The notes below the pieces were generated by a model that searched no databases, was not told the DNA's origin, and saw only the letters and a program-made list of their open reading frames with translations. From Adineta vaga (Eukaryota > Animalia > Rotifera): DNA of 64,000 nucleotides. The translations under genes and the position numbers were made by a program. The stretch is from assembly GCA_021613535.1 (NCBI GenBank), contig CP075497.1:434001-498000 (forward strand), read 5' to 3'. This document shows positions 7,758 to 63,499 of the stretch, piece by piece. Position 1 is the first letter of the stretch; each line of letters begins with the position of its first letter.

Positions 7758-8036
7758 TATCCATTTAATATCGCACGCACCAGCGGATTGTTACTTTCCT
7801 TTTTTATAGTACCTCTATTTTGTCAAGATATACGCACATTGAAATTATCTCGATTGACCAATACTAAACACCAATATTCACCTTCAATCATCATTTCAGT
7901 ATCTAATCAAAGACATTGTCAAATCATCTGTTTATCTATGTCTAACTGTCGTACCTTGGTATTCTACAAGGGGAAAAAAGCGGATCCTGGGATCTGATGT
8001 GGGTAATGATTTCTTATTTTTCATCATTAAACCTAT

Positions 8037-18101: not shown

Positions 18102-18146
18102 AATTCGAAATCGAATTGTTCGAGAGTATAAGATAAAGACATCTGT

Positions 18147-18784: not shown

Positions 18785-19353
18785 TGACTGCTCGAATAAG
18801 CTAACTTGATTTTCATAGATGATGATCTGTTCGTTTGGAAACTCTTCTTATTTCTCTTTTTTACATTTATAATTTGAATAGATGCTATTTGTGTTCCTAC
18901 AGAAATTTTTTTAAATAAATATCGTTGATTATACATGCTGTCCAAAAGAAACTGCACTTGTAGCAATGTATCAAAACAAATAGATTAATTCTTAATGATC
19001 ATAACTACGTTGTCAATTTTAATATCTCTTTAAATGCATGTGATATAGTCAAATGTTTCATATTTCATAAATTAACTATCTTTTGTATGTGAATTTTCCA
19101 TTTGAATATGTGTCAGTGACTTAGTATTACAAAAATATAACATCTTCAGGATGTGGAGAGTTGTGGATATGTTAAGTGTACATGATGAGCTAACGTTCAA
19201 CCCACAACCATTTCTATTTGTTCATCTAGTGATGGTGAAGCCTTAGTCGATGTTGATGTTCCTGAACTGTGTGACTGCGATGAAAGATCCACTACAGCAA
19301 GTTGAATAATTTTTTTTGATAAATGTTTACATAATCTTTTATCTTAATACATT

Positions 19354-19602
19354 TTGCTAGATATTAAAGAAATTTTGCATAATCCTATTTTATCATTGCC
19401 TTGGATTCAAGACAGCAAATGTTCGGGCACATTTCAGTTTTGGAAATCAACTAGAGCGTTTGTCATTGATGCAATTAATAAAAATGGAACAGTTCTTGAC
19501 ATTGGCTGTGCTAATGGATTCTTGTTGGCTTGTTTGACTGAATGGCTACAAGAAAAGTCCATAACTATTGTTCCTTATGGTATTGAATGTGATCCATCTT
19601 GA
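19354..19602 (+). pseudogene. Class I SAM-dependent methyltransferase, 3'-truncated
   Basis: Motif I VLDIGCANGFLL and the post-I strand VPYGIE. The frame stops inside the repeat arm at 19598, before the rest of the fold. Confidence 0.7.
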
Positions 19603-19657
19603 GGGTGTGGGTGTGGGTGAAGATGCCGTAAGAACAAATCACACTCACACCCTCGTG
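19598..19657. repeat. Telomere-like palindromic element
   Basis: CTTGAGGGTGTGGGTGTGGGTG ... CACACTCACACCCTCGTG. Confidence 0.9.
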
Positions 19658-20031
19658 AAAACTTAAGATGATGTCGATATACCAAAGCAAATTGTAATTA
19701 CAAGTATTCTACGCATGCTGTTAAATGACAGATTATTGATCGATTCTTCAGGTATTTATTCATGATATTTTTATCATACAGGTGACTAAATAGAAACGTG
19801 GGATGTTTATATAATACGTAGGCTTCTTTTGATTTTGTATTGTTTTGATTTATTTATAGAAAAAAATAAATCCTATGTGGGTGAAAAAGTTGAGAACGTA
19901 GTTTCTTGTGGAGAAAAAATATTGCACATGAAAATGACGTCAATAGTAATAATGTTGAATAGCAAAACGTTAATATAAATACCAGTTGTACATTTGAGAC
20001 ATTATGGACTCACAACGTCAAATTATACATA

Positions 20032-22495: not shown

Positions 22496-23099
22496 TTGAT
22501 AAAAATGAAAGTCTGGATTTATACCTTTCTAGTACGAATTTTATTTCAATCTAATATAAATTTGTATTTGACAATGCTTTTTTTAGTCATCATTTGTTTT
22601 AAGAACTCGAACAGTCCACAAACAAATGTTTTTTTTTCTCTCAAAATATACAAATTCATTTTAATAATTGAAATTTTCTTTCTTTTTTTTCTCGTTAACA
22701 ATAACCTATATCTCAATCAGGTTTCCAACTAGCACTTTGTATTTCATTTCCATACTGAATATTCAATACAACAATACTTGTAATTGAAAGTTTTCTTTGA
22801 TAAATTAAATGAAGGGTTTGAAAAAAATCTTATTACTTATTATTTCGAAAAAAAAGGTAACAACTACTATTTTCAACAAATAAAAGTCGAATACTCAGGT
22901 ATACTTAACTAATTTAAATGTTTAATTAACATCAGATATGGATACAACAATAGAGTAAAGTCGTAACTAGTGATAAAAAAGACATTCTACGATTTTCTTT
23001 TATACAAAAAATTATTTTGAATTATATTCATATCGAATTGAAAGTTTATCCATATCAAGATATATATTTTGAGAAAAATACAAATATTTACAAGCTTGG

Positions 23100-24925: not shown

Positions 24926-25017
24926 ATCTTGAGAGTATGGATGGAGGGGTGTGGGTGTAGGTAATATATTAACACATGAGTCTCACCCACCCACATTTAC
25001 ACCCACACCCTCAAGAT
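24926..25017. repeat. Telomere-like palindromic element (longest well-formed copy)
   Basis: ATCTTGAGAGT...GGGTGTGGGTGTAGG ... CTCACCCACCCACATTTACACCCACACCCTCAAGAT. Confidence 0.9.
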
Positions 25018-33300: not shown

Positions 33301-33520
33301 TTATATTTCGTTTATTATTGATAAATTTAATATTTATTCGATTGAAATACATTTATAATGTCAATATTTTTTGGTATTAAACTTGTTTTGTAATCTTACT
33401 AATAAATATATGGATAAATTGCAAAATTATTGTAAGATACAATGCGATACAAACGTCGGAGTAGAAACTTTTCTGCCATTTTTTTCACATTATTCGATAG
33501 AGTTTTAGCCTTAGCAAAAA

Positions 33521-33619
33521 CTTGAGGATGTGAGGTTCGAGTAAAGTTTTATCCACATCGATCCGTCAACCTCTGACATAAACACATACACAAACTATTT
33601 CTTTTCTTGAGAGTGAGGA
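33521..33619. repeat. Degenerate telomere-like element(s)
   Basis: CTTGAGGATGTGAGG at 33521 and CTTGAGAGTGAGG at 33606. Right arm weak. Confidence 0.45.
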
Positions 33620-42935: not shown

Positions 42936-43296
42936 AGTCTATTTTGAAATTATAGCGACAGCTCCTATCAAAATATTTTTCCCAATCTAGAAAAATGAAT
43001 ATAAAGAATGATATTTGGATGTTTTTTTCTGATGATAGTTCCTATGAATGTATCGCACACTCACCGTCCATTGACAATATAAAAATAATATCTATAGTTG
43101 AACCATCAGTATTGCGAATATACAATTTGTTGTTTAGATATTATTCTACCATCCATACAGAGTACAAAAACTACCATTAGATTACAACAATAAATAAGAA
43201 TAATACTGATGAATATTACGAAACAACCAGTAGTGTCAAACTTGAAAGTTGAATTCAATTATTCATATCTGATACCCCTATTACACTTCCCACACT

Positions 43297-43360: not shown

Positions 43361-43842
43361 TATATCGGTGTAGAGATCGGACGAACAGGTGTAAAATTAC
43401 TTCCGATATCTTATGAAACAGTAGCCAGTAAATAGAAACACCACATATGGATCCATTATTATACGAAACTATGTTAGCTTTTACTACGATCTGGTAGCGT
43501 GATGTATTCTTTTTTCTCTTTCTTTCGATGATTTGAGTGCAATGTTGTTCTGCTCTATCATTGTATGCCGCAATAACGCATGATTCTCTTTAACTGCGAT
43601 GTGCTTACCAGTTACCTTTTTTTGTTCTTCTACTGGTGATTCTCAGTCAAAGAGCAATACTAATTTCTCTTGTTGTTTTTCTATGTAGATAAGATGGCAG
43701 ATGCAATAGATATACACGCCAACGCCTATTTTTTGTGATAACAGAATATTTATATATCGTCCTTTCATCCACAACAAAAACATTATTGCAATCCTTTTCT
43801 AAGAGAATCACTTTAAATTTCACTCGCGTAGCACAAATAACA

Positions 43843-44174
43843 ATGACATTTCTTAACCGATCCTATCTTATGATGGTTTTCGCTCTCATCCTTGTTTTGT
43901 GTTTCGTTATGCCGACCGTGATGGGTGAGTAGTCCGCTGGACTAATTCATTTGTGCATTATAAAAATTGCATATATACATTCTAGGAAGACCATGTGGAT
44001 GCCCGTGCATGAAATGCTCTGCCGGTTACCAGTGTATACAAGGCTCCAATGGACTTGCACAGTGTGTTAAGTTTGATTTTGACTGGTTTAACGTGGAAAC
44101 ATGGCCAACCGCTAATCTTTCAATATAATACTCTACTGCCGCCTTTTGTTGACTTTCTTATGAAAAAGCAATAA
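43843..44174 (+). CDS. Small secreted Cys-rich peptide with follistatin-N-like spacing, 2 exons
   Basis: Signal peptide exon 43843-43924, intron GTGAGT..TCTAG, exon 2 GRPCGCPCMKCSAGYQCIQGSNGLAQCVKFDFDWF...KKQ*. Confidence 0.75.
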
Positions 44175-44275
44175 AATGTCAAAAACTTAACTATAGAAAA
44201 TCCGATAATGTACAAGTATCGAGGATTAGTTCACTAGAAAAGAAAGTCACCTAGTCTTTATTGTACCACCGCATT

Positions 44276-44815: not shown

Positions 44816-45544
44816 TTAGACTTGGTTATTTTGGCCACAACGAGGACAAAATGGATGCTGTGCTAATGAATATGTTTTATTATTCGCTGTCGTCATGTTA
44901 AAAACAGAGCTTTGACCAGAACTGTTACTCGAGTTTGCGAATTTTTCCACTATCATCGTATCCATGCATTGTAACTGTATAACTCGAGCATCTTTAAAGG
45001 TGTTCTTTTCACAAAATCCACTATACGGATAAAACAGTACTTCTTCTTCTGGATATGCAGAGTAATTTCTAATATCTGTACGATATGTTCCATCATTGGG
45101 CGATCCATCGATTTCAAACATATAACTACCAAATACTTGGGCGATGTTTTTGTTACGACTTGTACTAGAAAATGTTGGCCAGAGAAAAGCCATACCTACT
45201 TTTAGTTGATTCATTTCATTTGATTCAAGTTTAAGTCCTCGATAAACTTTAATTGATTCATATGAAAGATTTTCTTTGATAGCCTGTCGTAATTCATTAA
45301 TGTAGTTTGCGTGTTTCTGCAAAGTTTGAAGATCATCGTTTAGAAGGGCTCTGTTGATTTCTTCATAACAAGAATCTGATCCTTCGATTGTCCATTTACG
45401 GAAAAGACTGACTTTATCAATGTTTCGACTGGACACCATCGTGTTTATGATACTTTTATAAGCTGTACGACGAGATCTTGGCCATGTTACTGGTGATGTT
45501 GTATCAACATATCTATTGAAGATGCCATTGTTGTCTCTTGGCAT
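44816..45544 (-). CDS. Mono-ADP-ribosyltransferase (R-S-E class, exoenzyme/ART-like)
   Basis: INRAL helix, VYRG, FSSTS and YPEEEVLF catalytic motifs. Intronless. The frame continues past the TAA to 44516. Confidence 0.88.
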   Translation of the reverse strand: MPRDNNGIFNRYVDTTSPVTWPRSRRTAYKSIINTMVSSRNIDKVSLFRKWTIEGSDSCYEEINRALLNDDLQTLQKHANYINELRQAIKENLSYESIKVYRGLKLESNEMNQLKVGMAFLWPTFSSTSRNKNIAQVFGSYMFEIDGSPNDGTYRTDIRNYSAYPEEEVLFYPYSGFCEKNTFKDARVIQLQCMDTMIVEKFANSSNSSGQSSVFNMTTANNKTYSLAQHPFCPRCGQNNQV

Positions 45545-46032
45545 TATTTGTAGTGTGTGTCTTATTCAAGAATATCTGAGTGAGAATGGAAGAGTATATG
45601 GGATACATAAAAAATGGACATCTTTATAGTAACTATATTTTTGTTCGCCGAAAAATATTCTGTCGAAAGAATTTTTTCTCCTCACCGTCACTTTTACGAC
45701 GGCTTTCGAGACGAAAAACTGTCTTCAATGAAACCTTTTTCAGCGAAGAGGATATATATCTTTTATTATTGATTGTAAAAGAATAACAAATAAAGCCATG
45801 ACTCGTCAAAATTGATAAGAAATACTCCTTTATATAGCCCATTAAGATTATATTCACTTTGGGAAGTTTTAATTTTAATTTTATGATTGATAGCAGATAA
45901 TATTCTTGAATCATTGCATGAAAATCGCATCTAAATCTGATTTATATTACGCAACGATATTCATCAATTTTCATTTTGTTTATAGGATAGCTTCAGATAT
46001 CTATAAATACAGGACAAAGGACTTTTCTCGCT

Positions 46033-46079
46033 CGAGTATGAGTACATCTTATTCATGCACACCCACACCCACCCTCAAG
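46033..46079. repeat. Telomere-like palindromic element (good right arm)
   Basis: GAGTATGAGT ... CACACCCACACCCACCCTCAAG. Confidence 0.75.
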
Positions 46080-47393
46080 AATTGTTTTTATTTAATCTAG
46101 AATATTATTAAAATTAATCTTCAAAAGAATAGAATTATTAATGCAATTACGAAACGTTTTGTACATATACTTTAAAACAAAATACTATAAGAATAATATT
46201 ACGACTTTTCACTGTGTATATGATTTGATATAGACACGAACGACTCTTCGAATCAATTGAAAAGAACAATTCAAGATTCGATTCATTTCTATTAATGAAT
46301 ACAAACACTTCTAATGTTGAATTTGAAGAATAACAACATAATTAATAAAGAACACAAAGTATTTTCATTTAAACAATGTTATTATCCTTTTATCATCACG
46401 AATATTTTCATCGAGAATTGAAAAGAAAGAATAATATTAGAAATTCTAAATAATACATAAAACACCTTAATTGAAAAATGGGTTTGTCGAAATGGAAATA
46501 ATTAACATATACGGGAATTGATCGAAACAATTCTTTATGAAGATTTAAATCATTTTGAACTTAATTGAAGTACAACACTTCATTCAATATATCACATCAT
46601 GAAATTCGATTAGTTTCATATAAAATGTCATAGAATCCTCAATTGAGAGATTGACATCTTCATGACTGATTAATATATCTTTTAGTTCGAAAACATATTA
46701 TCGTTAATTATGCTTTAATTACATTTTTAGAGTTCAGAAATTCAAATTCTTTTTCTTTTATTCAAAAAAGAATCTCTGAAGACGAGACAATTTCTTTTGT
46801 TCTTGTTAAACAGATTCAATGATTTGTTGATAAAAATGATCAATTGTCAAATTGAAAAACTAAATTCAAATTTTATTTTTAATTTCTTTTTTTCTTCTTG
46901 AAAACAAGTTTTCATTTCAAAATCGATTGTCGAGTTATTTTATAAATATTTAAAACTTTATCTTAAAAAATTGATAATTTTACAAATCAATTTACAAATT
47001 ATCTTTATTTTCCTATTAAAATAATTTTTTAATCGTATTTCAAAGATTTCAATTATTTTTCTTTTTCAAAATCTTTTCATTGATTTTCATTTGTTCATTG
47101 AGAAATTTTCAAGATTTGATTTGAAAACAAAAAATCTTTGATTTAACAAACATTTTCTTCAAATCAAAACATTTCTTCTGCATAGTTTCATTTCAATTTA
47201 ACAAAAATCGTTTTTTATGACCGAAAAAATTCTTTGAAAAAATAATTTCATCGAAACAAATCAACTTTCGATCTATTTTGCATCGAGTTTTTGAAAAAAA
47301 CAAAAATATTTTCTCACTTTTATTACGAAAAAAAAAATTTTCTTTTCCTTTTTCAAAGTCAAACAATTTCGTTTGAAATACAAAGTTCATTTC

Positions 47394-47637
47394 AATAAAT
47401 TTTATCAAATCGAAGGATTCGATGATTTTCACAATCTGAAACAAAGATTTTCTCCAAAATCAAATGATAAACCGGCAGGACGATTCAATTGATTTGATTC
47501 TCTTCGTTGACCATTTCCAACAACAACAATCTCGCCTTCTTCATCACCTTCACACCATCGCATTATTCGATGACTTCTATAATCTACCACATAGATTCGA
47601 TTCCATTCATCAACAAACAATCCTTGAGGAGAATTCA
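47394..47637 (-). pseudogene. 3' remnant of an NHL gene, paralogue of 53934-55487
   Basis: NSPQGLFVDEWNRIYV is shared with the 53934 gene. Downstream non-coding DNA at about 46617-47400 matches about 53331-53935. Confidence 0.85.
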
Positions 47638-47697
47638 TGGGTGTGTGTGGGTACTCTTTAATTTGGGCCTACATCCACCCACCCACACCCACACCCT
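47638..47697. repeat. Telomere-like palindromic element at a junction of two gene remnants
   Basis: TGGGTGTGTGTGGGT ... CCACCCACCCACACCCACACCCT. Confidence 0.85.
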
Positions 47698-48413
47698 TTT
47701 CTACGTTTTTGGTAGTAGTGCAACGTTAGGAAAAACTTCGCAGCATCAGTGATCATAGTTAATCCATTCAATGGTACACAACGATATCGAGCAATGACGA
47801 CAGAAAGTGATGGTGAAATATTTGCTTTACGTGTTGATAGTAGTACAGGAAATTTATATTCAGTGCAATTGAACCATGAAATGAAAAGTCCTACAAGTAT
47901 CGTTCAGACAGATCCAAGTAATTTTATAGCTGAACAATGGGTAAATATAACCAAAGCTAGTGGCATGCAATCAGATTCAATGGAATTCTTTTTCAATTCA
48001 ACAGCTCATGAATATTTTGTGACAGTGTCCTACGATTCTGATTATCTTGTCGGTATTGATGTATAGTACAACGAAAAATAATAAATGAAACTAGAAATTC
48101 GAATTTACCAGCATATTTATGTTATGCCAATAAAACAGATGCTTTTTATGGTATTCAAGAAGTTCAAGAAAAACGTGCTTGTCGTTTAATACGTTTAAAT
48201 CCTAATACTGGCACCCTGGATATTCTGTCTCCTGACTTTAATGATTTTCTCGCATCGACTGGAACTTGTTATGGAGGTTATTATTTTACAATGATTGTTA
48301 AGAGTCTACATAAACGAAATATTCTCACATTTGATTTAATCAACAAAGGACGAATAATAGCAAATAATACAGCAGATGCATATCTCGATTCAGTTGCATT
48401 TGTTCCAACTTAA
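47698..48413 (+). pseudogene. 5'-truncated, frameshifted beta-rich (propeller-like) protein gene
   Basis: Coding-like sequence starts right after the repeat, passes through ORF 47749-48066, and continues in another frame to ...YLDSVAFVPT* at about 48413. Confidence 0.55.
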
Positions 48414-50270: not shown

Positions 50271-51177
50271 GGAGAATGGACAGTCGTGTACTATGACTTT
50301 TGACACACGGTTCTCTCTATCAGGGACGTTCTATATTACTGTTTTGCTGGTACAAATACGCGGTGGTATTTATACTACGCAATATCTCTTCTTCTATCAC
50401 GTGACTAGCTGTGTGACTCCTCGGCACGATCATCTATACAGAAGAGCATGATTGTTTTTTGAATTAGAAAGGAGAGATGGATGGGATATGTAAGACGAGA
50501 ATCCCTCTTTTCTTTTAAGATTATCAATAATTGATTTTTTTTAATCTTTAACACGATCACTAAAACAACAACAACAAAACAACAAGAGAAATAGAGACGT
50601 AGAACGTTGCTAATATTCGATGATAGGATTCTGTCCATGTTAATAGAAAGTGAATCAAAACAGACCAGCAACTAATGCTGTGTTTGGATGCGTACCTATG
50701 TCAAGAAAAATCATAAACCATCGGTAATTAATCGTGACTTAAACCCGATTTATGCGATTAATCGTCAGTAGTGTAGAACACAACTCGACGATTTGATTCA
50801 AATGATATCTCTTTAGTTCAAATATTCGAGTCTTCAGCGCGCGAGCCCGTTGAGATAGGCTTCTATACTCGGTTGGTAGTCCCGCTACATCAATGCTCCC
50901 GCGTGCTGATCTCATATTAATAGCTTATTCACTTTACTGCTGATTTTGAAATTTAAAAGTCGAGGACTCAAACATTCGAACATTTGAATATTAGAACTAT
51001 CTTGAGGGTGAGTTTATATAAAGATATAGATTCCCAACTACCATGACGCATTTTGAGCTGGCAAAAGATCTCATCGGATGGCCTTGAAATCATCATGAAT
51101 CTAGAAAAACTGAATCAGATGAAGTTGCTTAAGAGAGTGACTAACTCTATGGATAGTATTGTGGAACTCACGTAAAT

Positions 51178-51226
51178 TTGAGGGTGTGCGTGTGTCAGTA
51201 TTACATCTATCTAACACCCACACCCT
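51178..51226. repeat. Telomere-like palindromic element
   Basis: TTGAGGGTGTGCGTGTGT ... ACACCCACACCCT. Another left arm CTTGAGGGTGAG lies at 51001. Confidence 0.85.
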
Positions 51227-51393
51227 TTGGAGAAAATCTTTCGATTTTAAAATATGTTTTATTACCAGTTACATTTGGTAATATGATTCGTGAAGGAGTT
51301 TTTGTTAGAGGATTATATTTAGCAAAGCTATATCTAATACAAGTACTAATGTTGATATTGAAATACCAACAACAAATGTATATCAAAGTGTAA
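51226..51393 (+). pseudogene. Possible C-terminal remnant of a formate/nitrite transporter (FNT) gene
   Basis: VLLPVTFGNMIREGVFVRGLY resembles the FNT last-helix motif PVTLGNIxGGxxFxG. It starts at the repeat arm. Confidence 0.45.
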
Positions 51394-51598: not shown

Positions 51599-51798
51599 GA
51601 ATCTTTTATTCACGAAGTTCTGATGGTGATTTGAAGAGGACAAAAAAACAATATTTAATCTTCATTTAGAATAGATTACATAGAGGATTATGTATTTATA
51701 TGACATTTGATGTTGTGAATATAATCTGTATGATATTTAATAGAATGAGAACAATTGATTTCTTGTCAGTTGTACTATTTTTTTGTTACGAATACATA

Positions 51799-52962
51799 AT
51801 GTTTTTGCAAGTATCTTCTACGATTTATTCAATCTTTTTATTACCAATAGTTCTTAGTGAAATGATCAATGATCATCAAATATTCACAAATAAATTCCTT
51901 GGTAAATCGATTGAAATAAGTGACACACAAACTATTCGCACAATTGATGCATTTCTTCAAGGTGTATTAGAAAGATTTTCAATACCTGGTATTGCACTTG
52001 GTGTTTTTCGAAATGATAAAATAATTCATGCAAAAGGATATGGATATTCAAATATTGAACATCAAGTACCTGTAAAACCTGAAACAGTTTTTCAATCAGG
52101 TTCTGTGGGTAAACAATTTACTTCTATGGCAATAATGATGTTAATTGAAAAAGGAAAATTAAGATTAGATGATAAGATAAAGCAATATTTCCCTGATGCA
52201 CCATCAACATGGAATAATATTACAATTCGACATCTTTTGACACATACATCAGGAATGACTGATTATCCTGATCATATTAATTTACAAGATGATTACACAG
52301 AAGAGGAAATTTATCAAGAAATTAAGAAAAATCCACTTGCATTTCCAGTAGGTGAACAATGGTCATATAGTAATCTTGGATATGTAATGCTTGGAATATT
52401 AATTCGACGTATAACAAATCAATTCTATGGGGATTTTCTCAAAGAAAATGTTTTTAATCCTCTCGGAATGACAACAGCTCGAGTTATTAATGAAACGGAC
52501 ATTATTCCAAATCGTGCTTCAGGATACATTCTCGCCAATGGTGAACTTAAAAATCAGGCATGGGTATCACCGTCATTGAATACTATGGCTGATGGTGCTT
52601 TGTATCTAACTATTTATGATATGGCTAAATGGGATGCCGGACTAAATAATAATCAATTACTAAAAGATCCGAAAAGTTTTGATACAATGTGGTCTCCTGT
52701 AAAACTAAATAATGGTTCGACATATCCATATGGTTTTGGTTGGACTCTTGCACGAGCAAAGAATGGAATGCGTATTGTTGAACATGGTGGTGCATGGCAA
52801 GGATTTAAATCATTTGTTATTAGAATTTTAGAAGAAAAACTCACAATTGTACTCTTCGCTAATCTAGGAGAAACAGAAATCGAGGAACTAGCTAAATTAG
52901 TATTACATTTTTATAAACCAGAATTGGTTCCTAATTTGATTTTGAAATCGATAAATCGATAA
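51799..52962 (+). CDS. Secreted beta-lactamase-family serine hydrolase (AmpC/PBP4-like), bacterial-like, intronless
   Basis: SxxK (SVGK), LLTHTSG, YxN (YSN) and HGG motifs. Likely start MFLQVSS at 51799 with a signal peptide; the ORF track starts at 51700. Confidence 0.92.
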   Translation: MFLQVSSTIYSIFLLPIVLSEMINDHQIFTNKFLGKSIEISDTQTIRTIDAFLQGVLERFSIPGIALGVFRNDKIIHAKGYGYSNIEHQVPVKPETVFQSGSVGKQFTSMAIMMLIEKGKLRLDDKIKQYFPDAPSTWNNITIRHLLTHTSGMTDYPDHINLQDDYTEEEIYQEIKKNPLAFPVGEQWSYSNLGYVMLGILIRRITNQFYGDFLKENVFNPLGMTTARVINETDIIPNRASGYILANGELKNQAWVSPSLNTMADGALYLTIYDMAKWDAGLNNNQLLKDPKSFDTMWSPVKLNNGSTYPYGFGWTLARAKNGMRIVEHGGAWQGFKSFVIRILEEKLTIVLFANLGETEIEELAKLVLHFYKPELVPNLILKSINR

Positions 52963-53933
52963 TCGACTATGATTTTCATCGAAATCTATGGAAATAAAAT
53001 TATGTCTCACTGACCAAAGCTCAATAAAGCAATTAATTTGTTTGGTCTTTACATAAAATATTATAAGAAGAATAACATTTACTATGTCGTAATACAATGA
53101 CTATGGATTTTTTTTTCTTTAGATTTTTTGTAATATCATCATGAATAAGACGAAATCAAGTAAAACAGGGCACGAGAATCACGTTATTTTCTTCATTCAC
53201 CCTGAAGAGTGCATTATAAATAATAGTTAACAAAGTTTCTAAGGTCTATTATTTGCACACAAGAATGATAAGAAGTAATATATATATGATTATACAAACA
53301 TATCATGAGAACTTTTTTTCTATTTAATCTCATATAAAATGTCATAGAATCCTCAACTTAGACCGATGTCTTCGTGACTAATTGATATATCTTTTAATTC
53401 GCAAATATTTATCGTTAATTTATAATTCAGAAATTCAAATTCTTTTTCTTTTCATCAACAAAGAATCTCTACAGATGAAACAATTTATTTAATTCAATTT
53501 CTTTTTTCTTCAAAACAAATTTTCATTTGAATTAAATTTAAATCAACTAAAATTATGTTTTTCCTTTGTTAAAATAATTGAATTTTTCATTTCAAATTCG
53601 ATTGTTGATTTATTTGATAAATCTTTGAAATTTTTTCTTAAAAAATTTATGATTTTACAAATCGATTTACAAATTATCTTCGTTTTTCAATCAAGATTAT
53701 TTTCCTCCTTCAGAATCTTCGAAAATCAATTTCATTTCATTTCATTTCTAATTGAAAACACTTTGAAATCAATTTGAAAGAAACAAAATTATCAGAAACA
53801 CAAACACCAAATGGAAATCTTTGATTTAACAAACATTTTTATCAAATTAAATCATTTCTTCTGACAAATTTCATTTCAATTTCACTAAAATCGTTTTTTC
53901 TCAAATCTTTTCGTTTGAAATGCAAAGTTCGTT

Positions 53934-55487
53934 TCAATGAATTTTATCAAATCGAACGATTCGATGATTTTCACAATCTGAAACATACAGATTTCCTTCT
54001 ATATCAAACGATAAACCTTGAGGAGAATTCAATTGATTTGATTTACTTCCTTCACCATTTCCACCAATAACAATCTGACCTTCGTCCTCTCCTTCATACC
54101 ATCGCATTATTCGATCATTCCCCCAATCTGCCACATAGATTCGATTCCATTCATCAACAAACAATCCTTGAGGAGAATTTAATTGATTGAGATTGTTTCC
54201 CCAAGCATTTCCTCCAGCCACAACAACTCCTTCACGAGCATCTTTTCTCCATTTCATTACACGATTATTCTTCGAATCTGAAACATAAAGAGATTGATCT
54301 TTATCAATAAAGATGAAAGTAGGACAGTTGAGTTGATTTTGTTTATTTCCATTTCCACCTGCAACTAACGTTCCTTCTTTGTTTCCATTCATCTTTTCTA
54401 AATTCCATTTTCTCACTTCATTCTTCTTATAATCAGAAACATAAAGAAATCCATGTTGATCCATTGTTAAACCACAACAATCAATATTTTCAATGAGAAT
54501 TTGTTGTTTTTGATCTCTTGACCATTGCATCACTCGTCTGTTCAAGTAATCAGCAATGATGATTGAACGGTTTTGTTGATCAACAATCACGTCTGTTGGA
54601 CAATTCAATTGATCTATTCTATTTCCTTCTTCATTTTCACCTGCAATGATTTGTCCTTGTTTTTCATCCCATTTCCATTCAACAATACGATGATTTAAAT
54701 GATCAGCAATACAAATGGTTTTGTTTTCATCAACAAAGATTCCATAAGGACGAGAGAGTTGATTTAATTTACTTCCATTTCCATTTCCTCCCGCAACACT
54801 TTTTCCATTTTGTTGAATTTTAATTTCTAAACAATTTTCAAAAGAAAAAAGATTTTTGAAAAAGACATTTGATTTGTCTTTGTGTTTTTAATTAGAAAAT
54901 TTAAATCTTTAAACATGAGTTTAAAATCAACTTTTCATTTCAATAAAATAAGAATTCATAACTTTCAACTTACGTTTCGTTAAAATAATTGAAATTTCAT
55001 TAGTGAATTCTTGACGATGTTCTCGGATTGAAATATTTAATGGATTATTCAGTTCTTCAGTCATTTGATTTAATTTTCCTCGTAAATCCTTCAAATCAAT
55101 TTCATTAAATTCATTTTCTTGTTGAATTTCTTTAATTTGTTCACTTAATTCACTTAACTTTTGTTCGATCTCTGTAACAGATGTTTTAGAATGTTCAACA
55201 ACATTTTGTCGATATTTTTCAGCTGTTTGTTGAATTATTCGAATTGAATTTCTTTCCCATTGATCAATTCGTTTGATCAATGAATGATTTAATGGGTTTT
55301 GTTTCTGTTCGTTTATCCTTTGTTTAAATTGATCATAATTATTGATAACAGCGTTTAATTCTTCATTTAATAATTGTTGATGTTCATTTAAATCTGCCAG
55401 ACAAAATTCTTTTGAACATCCTCTGCAAAGAGTTGTAAATTTTTTATATTTGAGACATTTGAAACATTGTGCTGTGTTGTTTGCCAT
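53934..55487 (-). CDS. B-box-like Zn finger / coiled-coil / NHL-repeat protein
   Basis: Exon 1 has CFKC...CRGCSKEFC and a coiled coil. Exon 2 (about 54826-53934) has NHL repeats. Paralogue of 23203-24729. Confidence 0.88.
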
Positions 55488-56115
55488 AGGCATTTGTTTG
55501 AATTGAAGTTGATTAAAGAATGAAATGACTATCGATGCATTTGAATATTTTACACAAACATGAGTCAAAGTCAACAAAAATATTTTGATGTAGGAAAAAT
55601 CACTGATTTCAACAGAGTTCGTAATATTAAATCAAACAAATCTAATACAATGAAAAGAATTTATTAATGTTTTTTGTCAAATCAACAAATATTTGAAAAA
55701 ATTTGTTTTTTTTGTGGAAAAGAATAATTTCGTAAAGATATTGAATAGATGTCACTAATGTTAAAATATTTGTCAAAGAAAAAAGTCGCTCTGCATTGGT
55801 AAGACTGACGGTAATCGGTACTCATGTCAATGCCGTTGTCTTACTGATCATTAACACTGAGAGAAGCTCACTTGAAGCTTTTCTCCTAAAAAAAGACATG
55901 AATAAAATCATTATTCTACATAGTAAGACCAACTTGATCGAGACATTAATAAGAATGAATTGTTCAAAAGATTTTAATACAATATCTGACTCATTCTTTC
56001 TCAAGTTGTCACGTAAACAACCGAATATACTGATTGATTTTAGTAGAATACTCCAAAATTGAGCATATTTAGCATGAAGATGAAAAAATAGATCTGTTAA
56101 ACATGTTTTATTTAA

Positions 56116-58509
56116 CCCTTTGACTTCCGAATTATTTTTTGTTGGATTGCATTCAAGTAAATCACTGAATTAGCTTCCTCTAGACATAAGAGTATATGTT
56201 AGATATATCTTATGTGTTATCACAGGTGATTAATCGATTTGCGCAATATAAGTCACATTGAACTCTACTAGGCTGAACGGAAATTTTAACTGTTGAAGTT
56301 TATTAATTGTAAAACTTATGCAGTGTTTTCATGAAATAACAAAAAACAATTTTTATGCTGTTTTACACATAAAGAAATACCACAAAAACTGCATTTTATG
56401 TTACTAAATATCGGTCGAGCTTTAGTACTGCAATATCCACACCTTCCTTTAGGTCCAGCTACAGGCATATGTGCTAATAATTGAGTTGATAAAGATTTGT
56501 TCTTCGTTGTCATTTGAATTCGTCTTAGCTTTTGAGCAGAAAAGTGAACAGGTCTACCTTTTCTTTTTCTTGTACTAACATCACCAATTAGCGACATTGA
56601 AATAGAAGAGAGGAAGTCAATATAATCCATATGTTGTTCATTGAGATCGTTATAACAAATCAACGCATTCGAAAGACTTGCTTGAAGGAAGTAAATAAAT
56701 ATACGAAACCAATTTCGCTTAGATTTTCTGTCAATCGAATAACAAGAAATGCGTTGATCGAATGAATCTACACCACCCATAAATTTGTTGTATTTAGATA
56801 TCATTTGTGGACAAATAATGCGTTGTTTTGAGCCATCTTTTTCTCCTCTAAAAATTGTTTCTGTTTCTCTTGGATCAAAGGAATTAGTTGCAACAAACAC
56901 CGGCTTCCTGTCCTGCCATTTGACCACAGATATTTGGTTGTAAGAGCAGTATTTATATTCTCCTCTTTTCAGTTTCTCTTTTAGTAAAAGTTCTGTAGGA
57001 AATAACTTTCTATTAGTTCTTATCGTTCCAGTTGCTCCAATTTTCTTCTGTTTTAGTTGTAGCAGCAGAGGAATAGATGTAAAAAAGTTATCAAAAAATA
57101 GCTGGTGATTCACTAAATCCAAGTTGTTAATAAGCTGTAAAACAACACTTTCACCTAATGCTCCTTGTCTAGTTTCTTGTTTACCGGTATAAATGTCGAA
57201 ATTATAAAGATATCCTGTCAAAGAATCTGCTAAACACCACACCTTGTATCCTCTCTTGATCGGTTTTAAAGGTAAATATTGTTTCAAAGAGTTTTTACCT
57301 TTAAATTTGATCATACTTTCGTCGATGCAAATGTTGGTTCCCAAAATAAAGTTCACTTGAAAGTTCGTCTTGAGTAAATGTATGAAGTCGAAAACTTTGA
57401 ATAATTTGAACTTTTTTGAACTTTTTGCAAATTGTTTTTGTTTTGTATTGTCTGATAAATGAAATGAAGTAAATATTCGATAAAATTCTTTTCTTGGCAT
57501 AGTATTCGAAATAATTTCTGTATAAAATATTTTATTCCTATACCAATAATCATTTATTCGAGGTAATCGATGTAGACCCATGATTATCAATATACCGAGA
57601 AAAGCACGAATAGTACTTTCACTAACTTCTTGCCAATTACTTGGTTGTTCTTGTGCCAACCATTTTTTCTTTCCATAAATATTTGTTTGTTTTATCATCA
57701 AATTATAAACATCTTGTGTGAAGAACTTGTGGAAGATGTCAATCGGTTTGATGTTATTGGTAAAATTTATTGTTGTGTGTCCTTTGGCTTCATTTACAGA
57801 AAAAATTGTGTCTTGTATAAATTTTTCACTCCAAATCCACTCAAGTTCTTCTTCCATTTTGTTTTCAGTATCATCATCTTCTTCTTCTTCGTTTTCATCT
57901 TCAATAACGTCTTCTTCATCTATTTCAAGATCACTTTCATTTTACTCATAAAAACCGCTTTCATCAGCAAAAGGTAAGTCACTTGCATTACTTTCTTGAT
58001 CAGTATCCATGTTGTGCTTGTTGTATATTAGAATTACGTTCGATCAAATGGAAACAGTTAAAACTAATTGTATGAGATAAATATAGATGTATTATAGCAG
58101 AAAATCAGTAACTATATATAGATTTCGAACATTACGTTCTAGGAAGATCCAACAGAGAACATGACGTCATGAAAGAATACATATATAATATCATAGAAGA
58201 ATAGCAGAACATAGAAGGTAGATGAGTACAAATCACGTCATTAGAAAAGGAAAATCAAAGATATAGAAGAACGCGTAAAACTGATATACGGCATCAACTG
58301 ATCCAAATACTTCGCGACACTAGCTTGTGTTAAGATCGCAAATACCGCTATGTGAAGGCGGTGTATATGGCACAGGTACTTCGAAAAAAATCCTAGAACA
58401 CTTTCTGTTACATCCTTTCAAAAGATTATGTACTAATTTTTATGAATTACATTATGAGAAATATTAAAAAAACAGGTGTAGCTTTTTTTATACCAGGGAA
58501 GTCAAAGGG
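56116..58509 (-). mobile_element. piggyBac DNA transposon
   Basis: Perfect 13-bp TIR CCCTTTGACTTCC / GGAAGTCAAAGGG. TTAA on both sides (56112-56115 and 58510-58513). Confidence 0.95.
56316..58010 (-). CDS. piggyBac transposase (PGBD4-like) with a nonsense codon in the acidic N-terminus
   Basis: IDESM, DNFFTS, GGVDSFDQ and a C-terminal Cys-rich domain. In-frame ATG at 58010, TAA at 57942-57944, then a 513-aa ORF from 57857. Confidence 0.9.
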
Positions 58510-61015
58510 TTAATTCAGAATTGATATTATGCAGAATCTTTTCCTTTTGATGTATTTTAGATATCAATGAAACAGAAAGATTCATCGATATATCTGGATA
58601 ATTACCTAAATCTCTCGCTGTGAAAAAGCGATCAATATCATCATTATCAGTTCGTAATTCCAATTGACAAAGATATTCTTTGTTTTCAAAAATTTCAACA
58701 GGTTTTATATACATCAAACCTCGATCTGTAGATTGATAAAGACAACGTTCTTCTTCAACCAATTCTGTTTGTAAATCCTGATTTATACGACAAACTTTAT
58801 ATGGAGTGATACATTTACTATCATTCCATGAAAAATAATCATCGTTAATATTTGTAGTTCCATTATAAAAGTAGAATTCACGTAATAAAAATGTATCATT
58901 ACAAGAATCAAGATATTTCTCGTACATATGAATTAATGGTATACAATAAGGTGATTCAAAATAGTCCTTGTAACATTCATGTTCATTAAAAGAACATTTT
59001 GTATTAGGACAATTAATCTCATCTTCACCATTTGGACAATTCCAGTATTTATCACAATATGTATATGGATTATTGCATGGCCACCAATCACAATTGCTTT
59101 CATCAGTTTCTGTAAGCATAAGTGAAACTATTTTTCTGTTGTTATAATGATTGCATAATTCTACAAATGGTACTAGAATTACTAAATTTTGTGTGTATGA
59201 AAATATTTCATCCTCGCCCAAAGGACAATCAGGAGCTCCATTACCAACTGCAACTGATGATAAACATTTATTCGAATCTGATTGACATTTAAATCGATTT
59301 GAATTGTTCCATTGACAGGTATTAAATGTTTCGTCTTCTCTAAAAATACAATCCCGTGCACCATCTCCAACGCGATGATATGAAATACATTTCATAGATT
59401 CATTGCAGTAAAAATAGGATGAATTTATACATGATTTTTCATTACTCATTTTTAAGCATTGATGATAATAAAAGCCAAAAGATGACACTAAATCATTAAA
59501 ATCTTTCATTTCAATAAATTCTGTTAGATTTGAAGGATGACAACATGTTAATCCATTGATTATTTGTGTAGAATCTATTTTCATTAATAACATAGGACAA
59601 CTTTGTATATTAAAACATACAAAATCAGGTATAATATTTTCTTTGAATTGATCAATTGAACGATTAGTAAAATAAATAAATTGAAAAAAACCAAATAAAA
59701 TAGGATGTTCTGGTATTGCTAACCATTCAGAAAAACAATGTTGAGTTAAAGGTTCACAATCTTTATTCCATACATCTGCAATAGACGGAGGTGGTTTCAG
59801 AATATCCAATGCATTAAATTGATCTAAAACAATATATTACATAGAACAAAAGGTAATCTAATTGTATATTGTGCAATGGTATAATATCTAACGTTCTTGA
59901 GTAGAATCTCGATTTTTGTGACTCCTTTTGATCTATGATTTCTTATGCTAGAAATTATAAGGATCAAACACACAGATATTTTTCTCACCTAAACCAAATG
60001 TTCGATTGAAATGAAGTGCACAATAAAATGCTTTTTGACAATTAATACTTGAAATATGATCTATTGAGTTAAGCATGAATCGAGTTAATTCTATGTCTTT
60101 GCCATTAGAACACCTTTTCTGATCAACTGGTAGATAAGTATCTATCAAATATTGACCATCACCACATTGAAAAGACCATGAATATCGACCAGTACGTTCC
60201 TGACATCGAAAGGTGGAAATATATGAACAATCTTGATTCATCATTTTATTATGAGACGAGCGAACTTCTTCTTCATCACTACCATCCAAACAATCAATAC
60301 TATGACTACTATCTTTTTCAAATGTCAATGGAATACATTGACCACCATAATGACATCGATATTCATTATTAGTACATTTAATCATTTCTAACAGATGACA
60401 CCATTGTTCATCTTCTCCATTAATACAATCAATTTTTCCATCACATATTTCACGCCAATCGAAACACATTGGCCATGATCCACGATTACAACCAGTTAAA
60501 AATCGATAACATGTTCCATTGGTAATACTTAATTCATTAGCGAAAGTAGCTTGAACAATATCACCGAATGATAAAGTTAAATCATAATCTAACTTGTATT
60601 GACACATCGAAACAAACCATGGTGATGAACAATTATGAAAAACATCTAAATTGTTTCTATTCATTTCATAATTTTCAGCAACATTAATAGGTGCAAACCA
60701 TTGAAGTAATTGTTCACTTGTTATATTTCGTTCTTTTAATTCCTTAAAACTTATTGTTTCTGCTATATTTCCACTAGAAGAATACGAAATTTCTTCTTGC
60801 TCCTCTTCACTCATATCAGATCGTCTACAATAAGGAATTAAATGATAATTACGAATGTAATGTTTATCACGTTCTTTGCCTCCATCAATCAAATAAGCAT
60901 ATAAACAATCCAATGTTGGATAAGAAATTTGACGAATACCAGAATAGTACAATGAATAACGAGTATTCACTGAAATACACTAGAGTAAAAATAACAACAT
61001 ACGTATTATCATCAT
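58510..61015 (-). pseudogene. 5' half of an LDLa/EGF-GPCR family gene, cut by the piggyBac
   Basis: LDLa repeats (CDGKIDCINGEDE, CLDGSDE, NCPNGEDE). TAG within the signal-peptide codons at about 60980. The reading frame runs into the piggyBac TIR. Confidence 0.8.
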
Positions 61016-61120
61016 AGTTAGTAATGCTATATGAATGTAGACATTTTTTTTTATAAAGCAAGTTAAAATAGTGTTTTTTTTTTCTTCTCGTTCCTGTTTA
61101 TTTGCTACTAGCACAAAATA

Positions 61121-62798
61121 CAGGGTGGTTCAAAACCTTTACGCCCCTGGTTCTACCTCTAGATCAAATGGTTTCATCAACAATTTTATACTAAATCGTA
61201 GCCCGTAAACAACTGCATCAACGAGTGCAGCCATATACTCATGATTAACAATGAAGGAAAAGACACAGGGACGATACATGCATATGTGCACGTACAGATA
61301 AGGAAGAAATGAAGAAAAAGAAAAAGGAAAAGAATAACCAGGACACTTTTTCAATGTTTTTCATTTCTTTCATGTTCTAAACGTTTCTTTGCTCGTGAAG
61401 ATAACTGTTTTCGTTACCTCAAGAACTGAGTTAAGTATTATCTGAACTTCGACAAGTTCCTGATATCGAAATTGAAGAAATTAAAATGGTCACTCTTCCT
61501 GACACAGAAGAACAACGATTTGTGGATCGAATTCGTTGCATTACATACCGTGAGATACGCGATGAAATGATTGCAAGAACAGGGAATACATTTATCAGTC
61601 GCGAATGGATTTCCGAAAAGCTTCATCGTAGTGAAGACTGGGTACCACGGACTTGGAAGAAAACAGTCGAAGAATGCTATACACAATTTGCAGATGGTCG
61701 ACTTCAGGTGCTCTCGTAAGAAAGCAGAAACATTGTTGCTTCAGCAAGTGGTGTTAGAAACAGCGGCTCTCGAAAAATGGCACGAGAATTTTAGAGAAAA
61801 CAGGACAGAAAGTGAGTTATTCTACGGTTCGTCGTGAACGTCAGTGACAAGGATTAAAACCATTCCATGTTATTTCAAAGCCACGGAAACCAGTCACACA
61901 TGTTGAGGATCGAAAATGGCTTGCAAATTTCGTTGCTGACTAGGCCGAGGAAGATTTTCTACATATGGCGCCGTCGGATGAATTTTATATCTATGTGATA
62001 AGAAAACCAAACCATCAAAATGACAGAATTTGGGCAAAATCTGTTGAAGACATCACCGATGATGAAAGGTACCGTGAAATGGTTCAGAACGCAAAATGCA
62101 TTGGAATTTTCGTTATGTTCACTGCAAAGAAACTTCTTTGGATTCTGAAAGGGGATGGTCAATCGTGGAATGGCGCCTATTTTCGTGACATTATTCTGGA
62201 GAAACATGTGATTCCATTTCTGCATAATCCAGTCAATGTTGTTGATACAGATGAAGTCATATTTCTTCACGATAAGGCAGCCTGTATGAAAGCTAATGCA
62301 ACACAACATTTTCTGGAAGATGAAGGAGTGCATTTCTGGGGCAATTCGATTTGGCCTGGCAATAGTCCTGACATGAATCCTGCAGAGAACATCGGTGCAA
62401 TTATCAAAGATAGAGTTGAAGAGCTGATGGCAAGTGAAGATCCTCAAGATAGATACAATTATGACGCTCTCGCAGCTGTCAGAGGATGTCATACCAATTT
62501 CTAAAGTTATAAAATTTACTGTTAAGCAGTTTATATCCTCAATAAATGAGAAACTTCATGATATATTCGAATAGGTGAATGGAATGATGGTTCTTGCACA
62601 CATTCTAAATTAGAGGATATATGGCACTCTGATATATATGGCATAAGCTCTTTTGATTATGTAATAGACAACACCTGATTCGATAGTACAGGTTGATGTA
62701 GCAGTTTACAGACTACGATTTGGTATAAAATTGTTGATGAAATCGTTTGATCTATAGGTAGAACCAGGGAGGGGGCGTAAAGGTTTTGAACCACCCTG
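61121..62798 (+). mobile_element. Tc1/mariner-superfamily transposon (DD37E type), defective
   Basis: ~100-bp TIRs starting CAGGGTGGTTCAAAACCTTTACGCCCC. TA at 61119-61120 and 62799-62800. Confidence 0.93.
61486..62504 (+). pseudogene. DD37E transposase, interrupted
   Basis: SDE, HDKA and WPGNSPDMNPAEN with 37 residues between the second D and the E. Stops and frameshifts between 61719 and 61965. Confidence 0.88.
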
Positions 62799-63499
62799 TA
62801 CTAATTAAATCGATCATCACAGAAAAGAACGAGAGAAAGGATAACTTCTAGTAAAGTTCTACTCATCAATGATGTCGATGAGATATATTTTTGATTTGTA
62901 TATCGATTCTTTCTTTTGATCTGACTTATAGATAGCCTTGAATAGCTTATGCGAATAATAAAAAAGGACTGCGTCTTTTCAAAGATATATGATTTGATGT
63001 CGATATTTTCTGATTAGCAAAAAACACGAAATTTTCTCACGATTTTTCTTAATCAAAGCGTTTTTGGAATGATCAATCGTTTCATTTGTAGGGATTTCAT
63101 TCTCATCAACTGAGAAATAGGAAGTAAATATGGTTTATATTTTTATTCAGCTATCAAAACGAATATCAAACAAACAGAGAGATATTCTTCGTCGAAATTT
63201 ACTTGTTATTATTCATTAAAATCAAATATCATTTTCTCTATAACAGAACTGTAATTCTGACGATTAAAAGTGATATTTTATGATTTATCACGTATTTTCA
63301 CTAACATTTTATCAAAAATAAATGACATTTCGAATACATATAGATGTTTTATGCTGTTTTTCTTATTTACCATAATCTTTGAATTTAACATTTGCAAAGG
63401 TTATCTTTCGATGGGAAAATTGATGACCTTAGTTTTAATTAAACATCTTCCAATATAAAAAGCAGCACTCTTCTGCAAATATTCAAGGTAATTTTACCA

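Follow-up and report, generated by a model that had tools for sequence, protein, structure and literature searches.

The palindromic joint and its two flanking genes

The region considered here is a 64,000-nt stretch of the Adineta vaga genome (assembly GCA_021613535.1, contig CP075497.1, positions 434,001 to 498,000), referred to as the window; all coordinates count from its first base. It is AT-rich and contains NHL, LDL-receptor, FG-GAP and ADP-ribosyltransferase-like genes, a beta-lactamase-family ORF and transposons. Within it, a 59-base back-to-back run of telomere repeats separates two unrelated 5'-truncated genes (Table 1). The two tracts are interstitial, lie head-to-head and consist of the species' own telomere-type repeat, and their DNA is foreign to both flanking genes. 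At each end, the G-rich strand runs 5' to 3' away from the retained sequence. The arms are 93% complementary over 15 nt, and the fold of the unit has a z-score of -2.9. An earlier note, made from the sequence alone, had described a palindrome joining two such genes back to back, and this description and all of its coordinates hold.

Table 1. Features of the window that define the joints and units discussed in the text.
Feature	Position	Strand	Remarks
SAM-methyltransferase gene, 5' part	19237..19599	+	cut after the D-P-S codons; remainder absent from the window
Second unit	19596..19659		full left arm; its first four bases are the gene's last native bases
Unit	24926..25017		outer ends complete left and right; lies between divergent genes; flanks read by eye
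NHL-repeat gene, 3' tail	47392..47637	-	~82 codons with stop; 5' part absent; 2-nt frameshift near 47442
Native CTTGAGG	47623..47629	+	encodes PQG of an NHL repeat on the opposite strand; 8 nt separate it from the tract
G-rich arm	47638..47652	+	irregular TGTGGG-type repeat, without the outer ATCTTGA of full arms
Linker	47653..47676		24 nt; no copy in 300 nt on either side
Second arm (C-tract)	47677..47696	- (G-rich on minus strand)	outer part absent; at most 1 nt common to the gene
Remnant of a 313-aa bdelloid protein family	47697..48413	+	lacks the initial ~75 codons; frameshifts near 47735 and 48063
Unit	51175..51232		linker common to 10-13 other contigs per run
Intact-looking NHL paralogue	53934..55490	-	reference for the left break

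The NHL remnant aligns to positions 53901-54179 with 86% identity over 279 nt and is identical to the paralogue over 47591-47635. NHL contigs from public sequencing runs (10 in X2 and 5 in X13 in one comparison, 2 in X2 and 1 in X4 in another) match the remnant up to 47637 and then continue as NHL coding sequence, which fixes the left break at 47637/47638, in agreement with the earlier observation that the remnant follows its paralogue right up to this base. No copy of the telomere-repeat unit is common to the NHL paralogues. On the other side, homology of the plus-strand remnant begins at the codon before F77 of the 313-aa family, whose typical members are 308-321 aa long, and the gene starts directly after the C-arm, as had been noticed. 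This remnant shows a 99% match to an A. vaga protein, and all of its species-named matches are bdelloid. A public annotation at 47794-48410 (186 aa) begins past the first frameshift and bypasses the second by means of a 50-nt gap, although homologues show these bases to be coding. Both genes at the joint are dead gene pieces. The value of this joint lies in the fact that both native sides are known, so that the added bases can be read exactly: the outer seven arm positions are gene sequence on both sides, and arm and gene overlap by 0 nt at the left end and by at most 1 nt at the right end.

Single contigs of the public runs X1, X2, X3 and X4, which judging by their codes represent four samples from four studies, bridge the joint and reach 32-37 letters to its left. 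Since they cross it without a difference and carry the right-hand frameshifts unchanged, both the joint and these frameshifts are real, and the palindrome is a genuine junction between two broken genes. Palindromes in an older A. vaga assembly were artefacts (PMC8494291), and one of the bridging runs may be the source of the present assembly; against four bridging runs with zero differences, however, the misassembly that the earlier note had named as a refutation has become vanishingly improbable.

To the left of the joint, two allelic contigs cover 45897-46064 at depths of 15.4 and 12.3 in X2 and of 66 and 53.9 in X4, and allele-like variants can be followed as far as about 47029, so that the second homologue would depart between 47029 and 47720. 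Across the joint, the contig depth is 14 in X2 and 58.2 in X4. In bins at 88% likeness, the depth amounts to 28.6-28.9 on the left vs 14.4-14.9 on the right in X2 and to 31.2-33.9 vs 17.6-18.2 in X3; X1 exhibits no step (72.8-77.5 vs 66.9-69). Contig depth reflects copy number only weakly; with this reservation, the values suggest that in X2, X3 and X4 the joint, together with 5 kb or more of the sequence on its right, is present on one homologue. The event would then be recent enough to sit on one homologue.

A family of paired telomere-repeat units

The palindrome, which had been considered a single case, belongs to a family: about 17 paired units were identified in the window, about one per 4 kb, always with the G-arm preceding the C-arm. 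The strict pattern GGGTGTG-N12..42-CACACCC yields 8 matches at 7 window sites vs 0 in 100 shuffles, and the opposite order (C-arm then G-arm) has 0 occurrences of the strict pattern in the window. A window-trained profile identified 17 G-then-C pairs, one of them probably false, vs 2 C-then-G pairs (binomial p = 7e-4), together with a few unpaired arms. As the consensus of the arms we obtain ATCTTGAGGGTGTGGGTGTG, whose first 12 bases occur 12 times at <=1 mismatch vs 0.66 expected. The profile locus at 33519 and the match at 33604 overlap coding homology and are probably not units; they were nevertheless kept in the counts of 17 and 12, respectively. All arms can be described as pieces of one 20-mer, ATCT-TGAGGG-TGTGGG-TGTG. 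Past the first four bases, an arm therefore consists of one TGAGGG and one TGTGGG, followed by TGTG; TGTGGG is the telomere repeat of A. vaga (PMC8494291) and TGAGGG that of Philodina roseola (supplement of PMC7943196).

When 20 window arms were anchored on their inner core, 4 of the 20 were found to carry all seven outer bases, and the remaining arms match 0-4 outer bases, beyond which the match rate is 0.32 vs a background of 0.29. Truncation explains this pattern better than position-only decay (column permutation p <= 5e-5) and better than age-only decay (within-arm permutation p = 0.00035; 4.8 log-likelihood units). With row and column totals both fixed, nesting of the arms is not significant (p = 0.28), and a conserved core combined with copies of mixed age also fits the pattern. 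These statistics cover window arms only, to the exclusion of the pattern-selected arms of the two metagenome contigs described below, and the arm at 46070, which was anchored off register, was left among the 20. At the three ends with a known native side, the arms start at different positions (overlaps of 0, <=1 and 4 nt).

The linkers between the arms are 9-52 nt long. A set of 21 linkers is slightly more alike than its own shuffles (likeness 12.5 vs 11.4 +/- 0.2) and no more alike than random pieces of the window (12.5 vs 12.0 +/- 0.4), and the 18 window linkers show no copy from nearby DNA (longest match 7.06 vs 7.34 for random pieces). In each run, 10-13 contigs contain the linker at 51192-51225 between other flanks, so that some linkers have to be considered templated. 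Further copies of the unit with other linkers are present in contigs of the public runs.

The second unit at which both arm and gene can be read interrupts a methyltransferase gene at 19596. The gene ends in Y-G-I-E-C-D-P-S, and in 5 of 5 aligned homologues the residue after D-P-S is V or I and the protein continues for about 130 further residues; these ~130 residues were found nowhere in the window, including across the unit. The P-S codons supply ATCT in register with the arm, resulting in a 4-nt overlap between arm and native sequence. The TGA that follows in the arm is not native, as it would place a stop inside a gene whose homologues continue. Judged by the alignments, the two units tested against homologues, i.e., this one and the joint at 47638, sit exactly on coding breaks, so that breaks are demonstrated at 2 of about 19 units. 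A Pfam search of 57 frames near units returned only the methyltransferase and weak PAN and SRP1 matches, and showed no other break. The frame at 7761-7991 has no homologue among longer proteins, and the sole match of 51235-51390 is one spurious repeat. At 7761-7994 (+), directly after a C-arm ending at 7760, lies a frame with a signal-peptide-like start and a weak PAN domain that lacks an ATG.

Units are located 20-1450 nt from the nearest long ORF, at either its 5' or its 3' end. Those at 18103, 20840 and 23149 lie 44-76 nt past a stop codon, and those at 2392 and 51605 precede an ORF start by 20-95 nt. Open frames that extend as far as a unit show no enrichment. Near ORFs, joints that spared genes may have survived. 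At the unit with full outer ends on both sides (24926), no target duplication is evident past the palindromic AT.

Beyond the window and the public runs, the paired pattern was found in two AT-rich contigs of a metagenome collection (L001 and L002), with the same arms as in the window; L002 exhibits perfect 20-nt inverted ends. In L001, a second, decayed unit (1115-1185) precedes the intact one by about 75 nt. A collection of viral contigs gave 0 matches to the paired pattern. One match in a prokaryote genome (Azospirillum) is an isolated hairpin without the ATC outer end, two phage matches in a single-arm scan lack a partner arm, and nine viral hairpins retrieved with a looser paired pattern lack the outer flank; all of these were rejected as unrelated. 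The exact arm sequence was not found in the literature searched, and two primary bdelloid telomere papers outside it may describe the unit.

Several other elements share the window. A piggyBac-like element at 56112-58513, with identical inverted ends starting with TTAA and a 513-aa DDE_Tnp_1_7 ORF, looks complete. At 61119-62800, a pair of ~105-nt inverted repeats flanked by TA surrounds two overlapping ORFs, the one scanned giving no Pfam match; we take this element to be Tc1/mariner-like. The ends of these two elements with terminal inverted repeats (TIRs) differ from those of the unit. A 38-nt stretch at 43228-43265 is present in 14-16 contigs per run that have loose ends left and right of it; it is a further short dispersed repeat and has no relation to the telomere-type unit. 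An X13 contig joins 43923 to 43985 at GT..AG, which suggests a small spliced cysteine-rich gene at 43821-44142, whose end and the unit at 44270 are separated by about 130 nt. On the minus strand, a 242-aa ORF with ADP-ribosyltransferase Pfam matches (44816-45544) is located 486 nt from a single arm at 46030-46081. An uninterrupted 420-aa beta-lactamase-family ORF at 51700-52962 (+), 95 nt after a unit and inside the single-depth block, is possibly a foreign gene.

Origin of the arms and alternative explanations

It had been suggested, tentatively, that the GT tract may have been added de novo near a CTTGAGG seed, as in telomere healing, and that two ends capped in this way were then fused. A native CTTGAGG is indeed located near the tract, and the paralogue carries the heptamer at 54017 and 54167 (150 nt apart); the gap to the tract is 8 nt rather than about 10. 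These eight native bases place the heptamer 8 nt out of register with the G-tract, while in other units ATCTTGAG runs directly into the tract, and no CTTGAGG-like seed is present at the right-hand end of the joint. If the intact NHL paralogue were broken at random, the end of a CTTGAGG would lie 0-13 nt upstream of the break in 3% of cases; its proximity is thus mildly unusual, and an enzyme-attracting role, though conceivable, is not supported by this one post-hoc case. In-register pairing of the first added repeat with native bases is seen at 19596 alone, where the native ATCT comprises at most 4 nt and the TGAG cannot be native. As ATCT is native at this site and the following TGAGGG, with its stop, cannot be, CTTGAG is for the most part an addition, for which no more than four native bases served as primer. 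The native CTTGAGG is therefore probably not the trigger of tract addition. Thus, the real joint, the telomere repeat and an orientation such as telomerase would produce all survive from the healing-and-fusion proposal, and priming at a native seed does not: that telomerase primed on a CTTGAGG already in the gene before two healed ends fused is highly unlikely, even when its closeness at the left tract and the in-register ATCT at 19596 are counted in its favor.

With moderate confidence, we instead favor the interpretation of the palindrome as a repair scar, in which the telomerase template together with its 3' flank was copied onto both ends, which were then joined through filler. A double-strand break would be followed by one short telomerase pass on each broken 3' end, with priming at a variable register of an extended template and 0-4 nt of pairing. 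We infer that the arm would be copied from RNA, that ATCTTGAG would be complementary to the bases that directly follow the telomerase template on its 3' side, that priming could occur at any register, and that the two capped ends, here from unrelated loci, would be end-joined, leaving the ~24-nt filler as the linker. This interpretation is favored because the arm comprises one unit each of the A. vaga and P. roseola telomere repeats, because the G-then-C polarity is fixed and the arms look cut from the outside, because both units tested against homologues sit on coding breaks, and because depth changes from the two-allele to the one-allele level at the joint in X2, X3 and X4. Telomere repeats reported at newly formed deletion breakpoints of A. 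vaga lines (PMC13564844) and a Xenopus locus of the same layout (PMC8537989) also count for the repair scar. Counted against it are the tracts of 15-20 nt, which are too short for working telomeres, and the recurrent linkers, which random filler does not explain. The repair scar predicts a telomerase RNA that contains the complement of the 20-mer. An Rfam scan of the window gave 0 matches, PMC8480181 includes no rotifer, and a bdelloid telomerase RNA was not found in the literature searched.

Alternatively, the unit could be a tiny mobile or pre-existing hairpin element, similar to a MITE with 20-nt inverted ends, and the joint at 47638 would have formed later, when deletions or recombination between two copies removed the outer bases. 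Like the MITEs of the TIR transposons ISL2EU (AT duplication) and Spy (no duplication; PMC4122938), the units are short and dispersed, have inverted ends, perfect over 20 nt in the best copies such as L002, and show AT at the edges of full copies, which might represent a 2-bp duplication as in ISL2EU. The many copies, the linker subfamily common to 10-13 contigs and the fixed-margin test, which is compatible with decay, point in the same direction, as does one alignment that hints at an insertion at 23097 in AT-rich and unreliable sequence. Unlike these MITEs, however, the units have no shared interior or uniform length, their linkers being no more alike than random pieces of the window, and they have ragged ends and arms made of telomere repeats. 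The AT is palindromic and looks the same as the arm end, with nothing duplicated past it where the flanks were read by eye. In addition, the remainder of the methyltransferase gene is not found across the unit at 19596, and the joint at 47638 would need two separate losses that end at nearly the same point of both arms. A mobile or hairpin origin is consequently considered unlikely.

Less likely still is a bridge built by an Athena/Terminon reverse transcriptase (RT), in which the 3' end of an RNA with ACACCC repeats would anneal to a capped end and a short aborted copy would form the linker. Terminon/Athena retroelements resemble the units in carrying ACACCC or TCACCC repeats at chromosome ends and breaks, and their exposed (ACACCC)n or (TCACCC)n 3' ends attach to G-rich ends (PMC6431247). 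Athena pieces have been described at new breakpoints (PMC13564844), and the conserved linker subfamily adjoins an ACACCC tract. Yet this route yields repeats in direct orientation, whereas those of the units are inverted, and it leaves the same outer ATCTTGAG on both arms unexplained. Neither a hammerhead at Rfam gathering thresholds, which divergent ones could escape, nor an RT among the 34 frames scanned was found in the window. The units might also be paired protein-binding sites (insulator, promoter or telomere-protein sites) under selection, with the joint at 47638 as an incidental deletion. Such a function would agree with the recovery of the same arm in two metagenome contigs and with the absence of all 19 copies from the interior of long ORFs, a figure that is partly circular, since a unit breaks an ORF. 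The units keep no fixed side or distance, and their spacing of 20-1450 nt on either side of long ORFs argues against a promoter element; two copies on coding breaks and the lack of a common copy in the NHL paralogues further reduce a binding site to a very improbable explanation.

Known systems and biological meaning

By analogy, the closest known counterpart is the TERC-ITS of vertebrates, which the unit may resemble in its way of working; class assignment awaits the telomerase RNA. As at the head-to-head TERC-ITS locus of Xenopus and two loci of mouse lemur, short head-to-head interstitial telomere repeats mark a repaired break, a non-repeat piece precedes the tract in the same orientation, and two telomerase actions were proposed there (PMC8537989). 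At this Xenopus locus (type C), the sequence in front of the two opposed tracts derives from the region directly downstream of the template (PMC8537989). The head-to-head arrangement, however, accounts for 3 of the 41 vertebrate loci described in PMC8537989 and is the rule here, and the TERC origin was shown there by alignment, whereas a template origin of the rotifer arms is a prediction. In the rotifer, both arms have the same flank and are separated by a linker of 9-52 nt, and the sequences brought together at each of the two tested units are unrelated.

Neotelomeres and telomere-spanning fusions in human cancer likewise place repeats on broken genes, with 0-3 nt of microhomology and later fusion, but these are about 5 kb long and somatic (PMC11293586), whereas the tracts in A. 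vaga measure 15-20 nt, occur in several samples and are two-sided. Bdelloid neotelomeres and interstitial (TGTGGG)n share the repeat and the organism, as well as the association with deletion breakpoints and rearranged, transposon-rich regions (PMC13564844; PMC8494291; PMC2861651); as described in these sources, they consist of plain repeats or Athena pieces, in contrast to the paired arm-linker-arm structure with its ATCTTGAG flank. Penelope palindromes (PMC3846280) were considered and represent another kind of palindrome, and a link to N4CMT target motifs was not found in the consulted part of PMC8885841. New here are the exact arm sequence, the in-register 4-base overlap at the second break, the one-homologue joint and a concrete template prediction.

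Bdelloids survive massive DNA breakage and carry unusually large amounts of shuffled and foreign DNA, and the end-joining routes responsible are poorly known. Should telomerase have left the units as scars, each would record a rearrangement of the past, at a density of about one per 4 kb in regions of this kind. As a tentative extension, bdelloids might use telomerase as a routine two-sided end-joining tool: a single pass over the template, including its 3' flank, would cap each end, capped unrelated ends would be sealed, and many gene-shuffling scars would result, which would spell the template region, predicted to be 5'-CACACCCACACCCUCAAGAU-3'. If true, this template would also explain the occurrence of both TGAGGG and TGTGGG as bdelloid telomere repeats, and the 20 bases would provide a probe for the telomerase RNA. 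An arrangement that is a rarity among vertebrate TERC-ITS loci (PMC8537989) would then become a main pathway.
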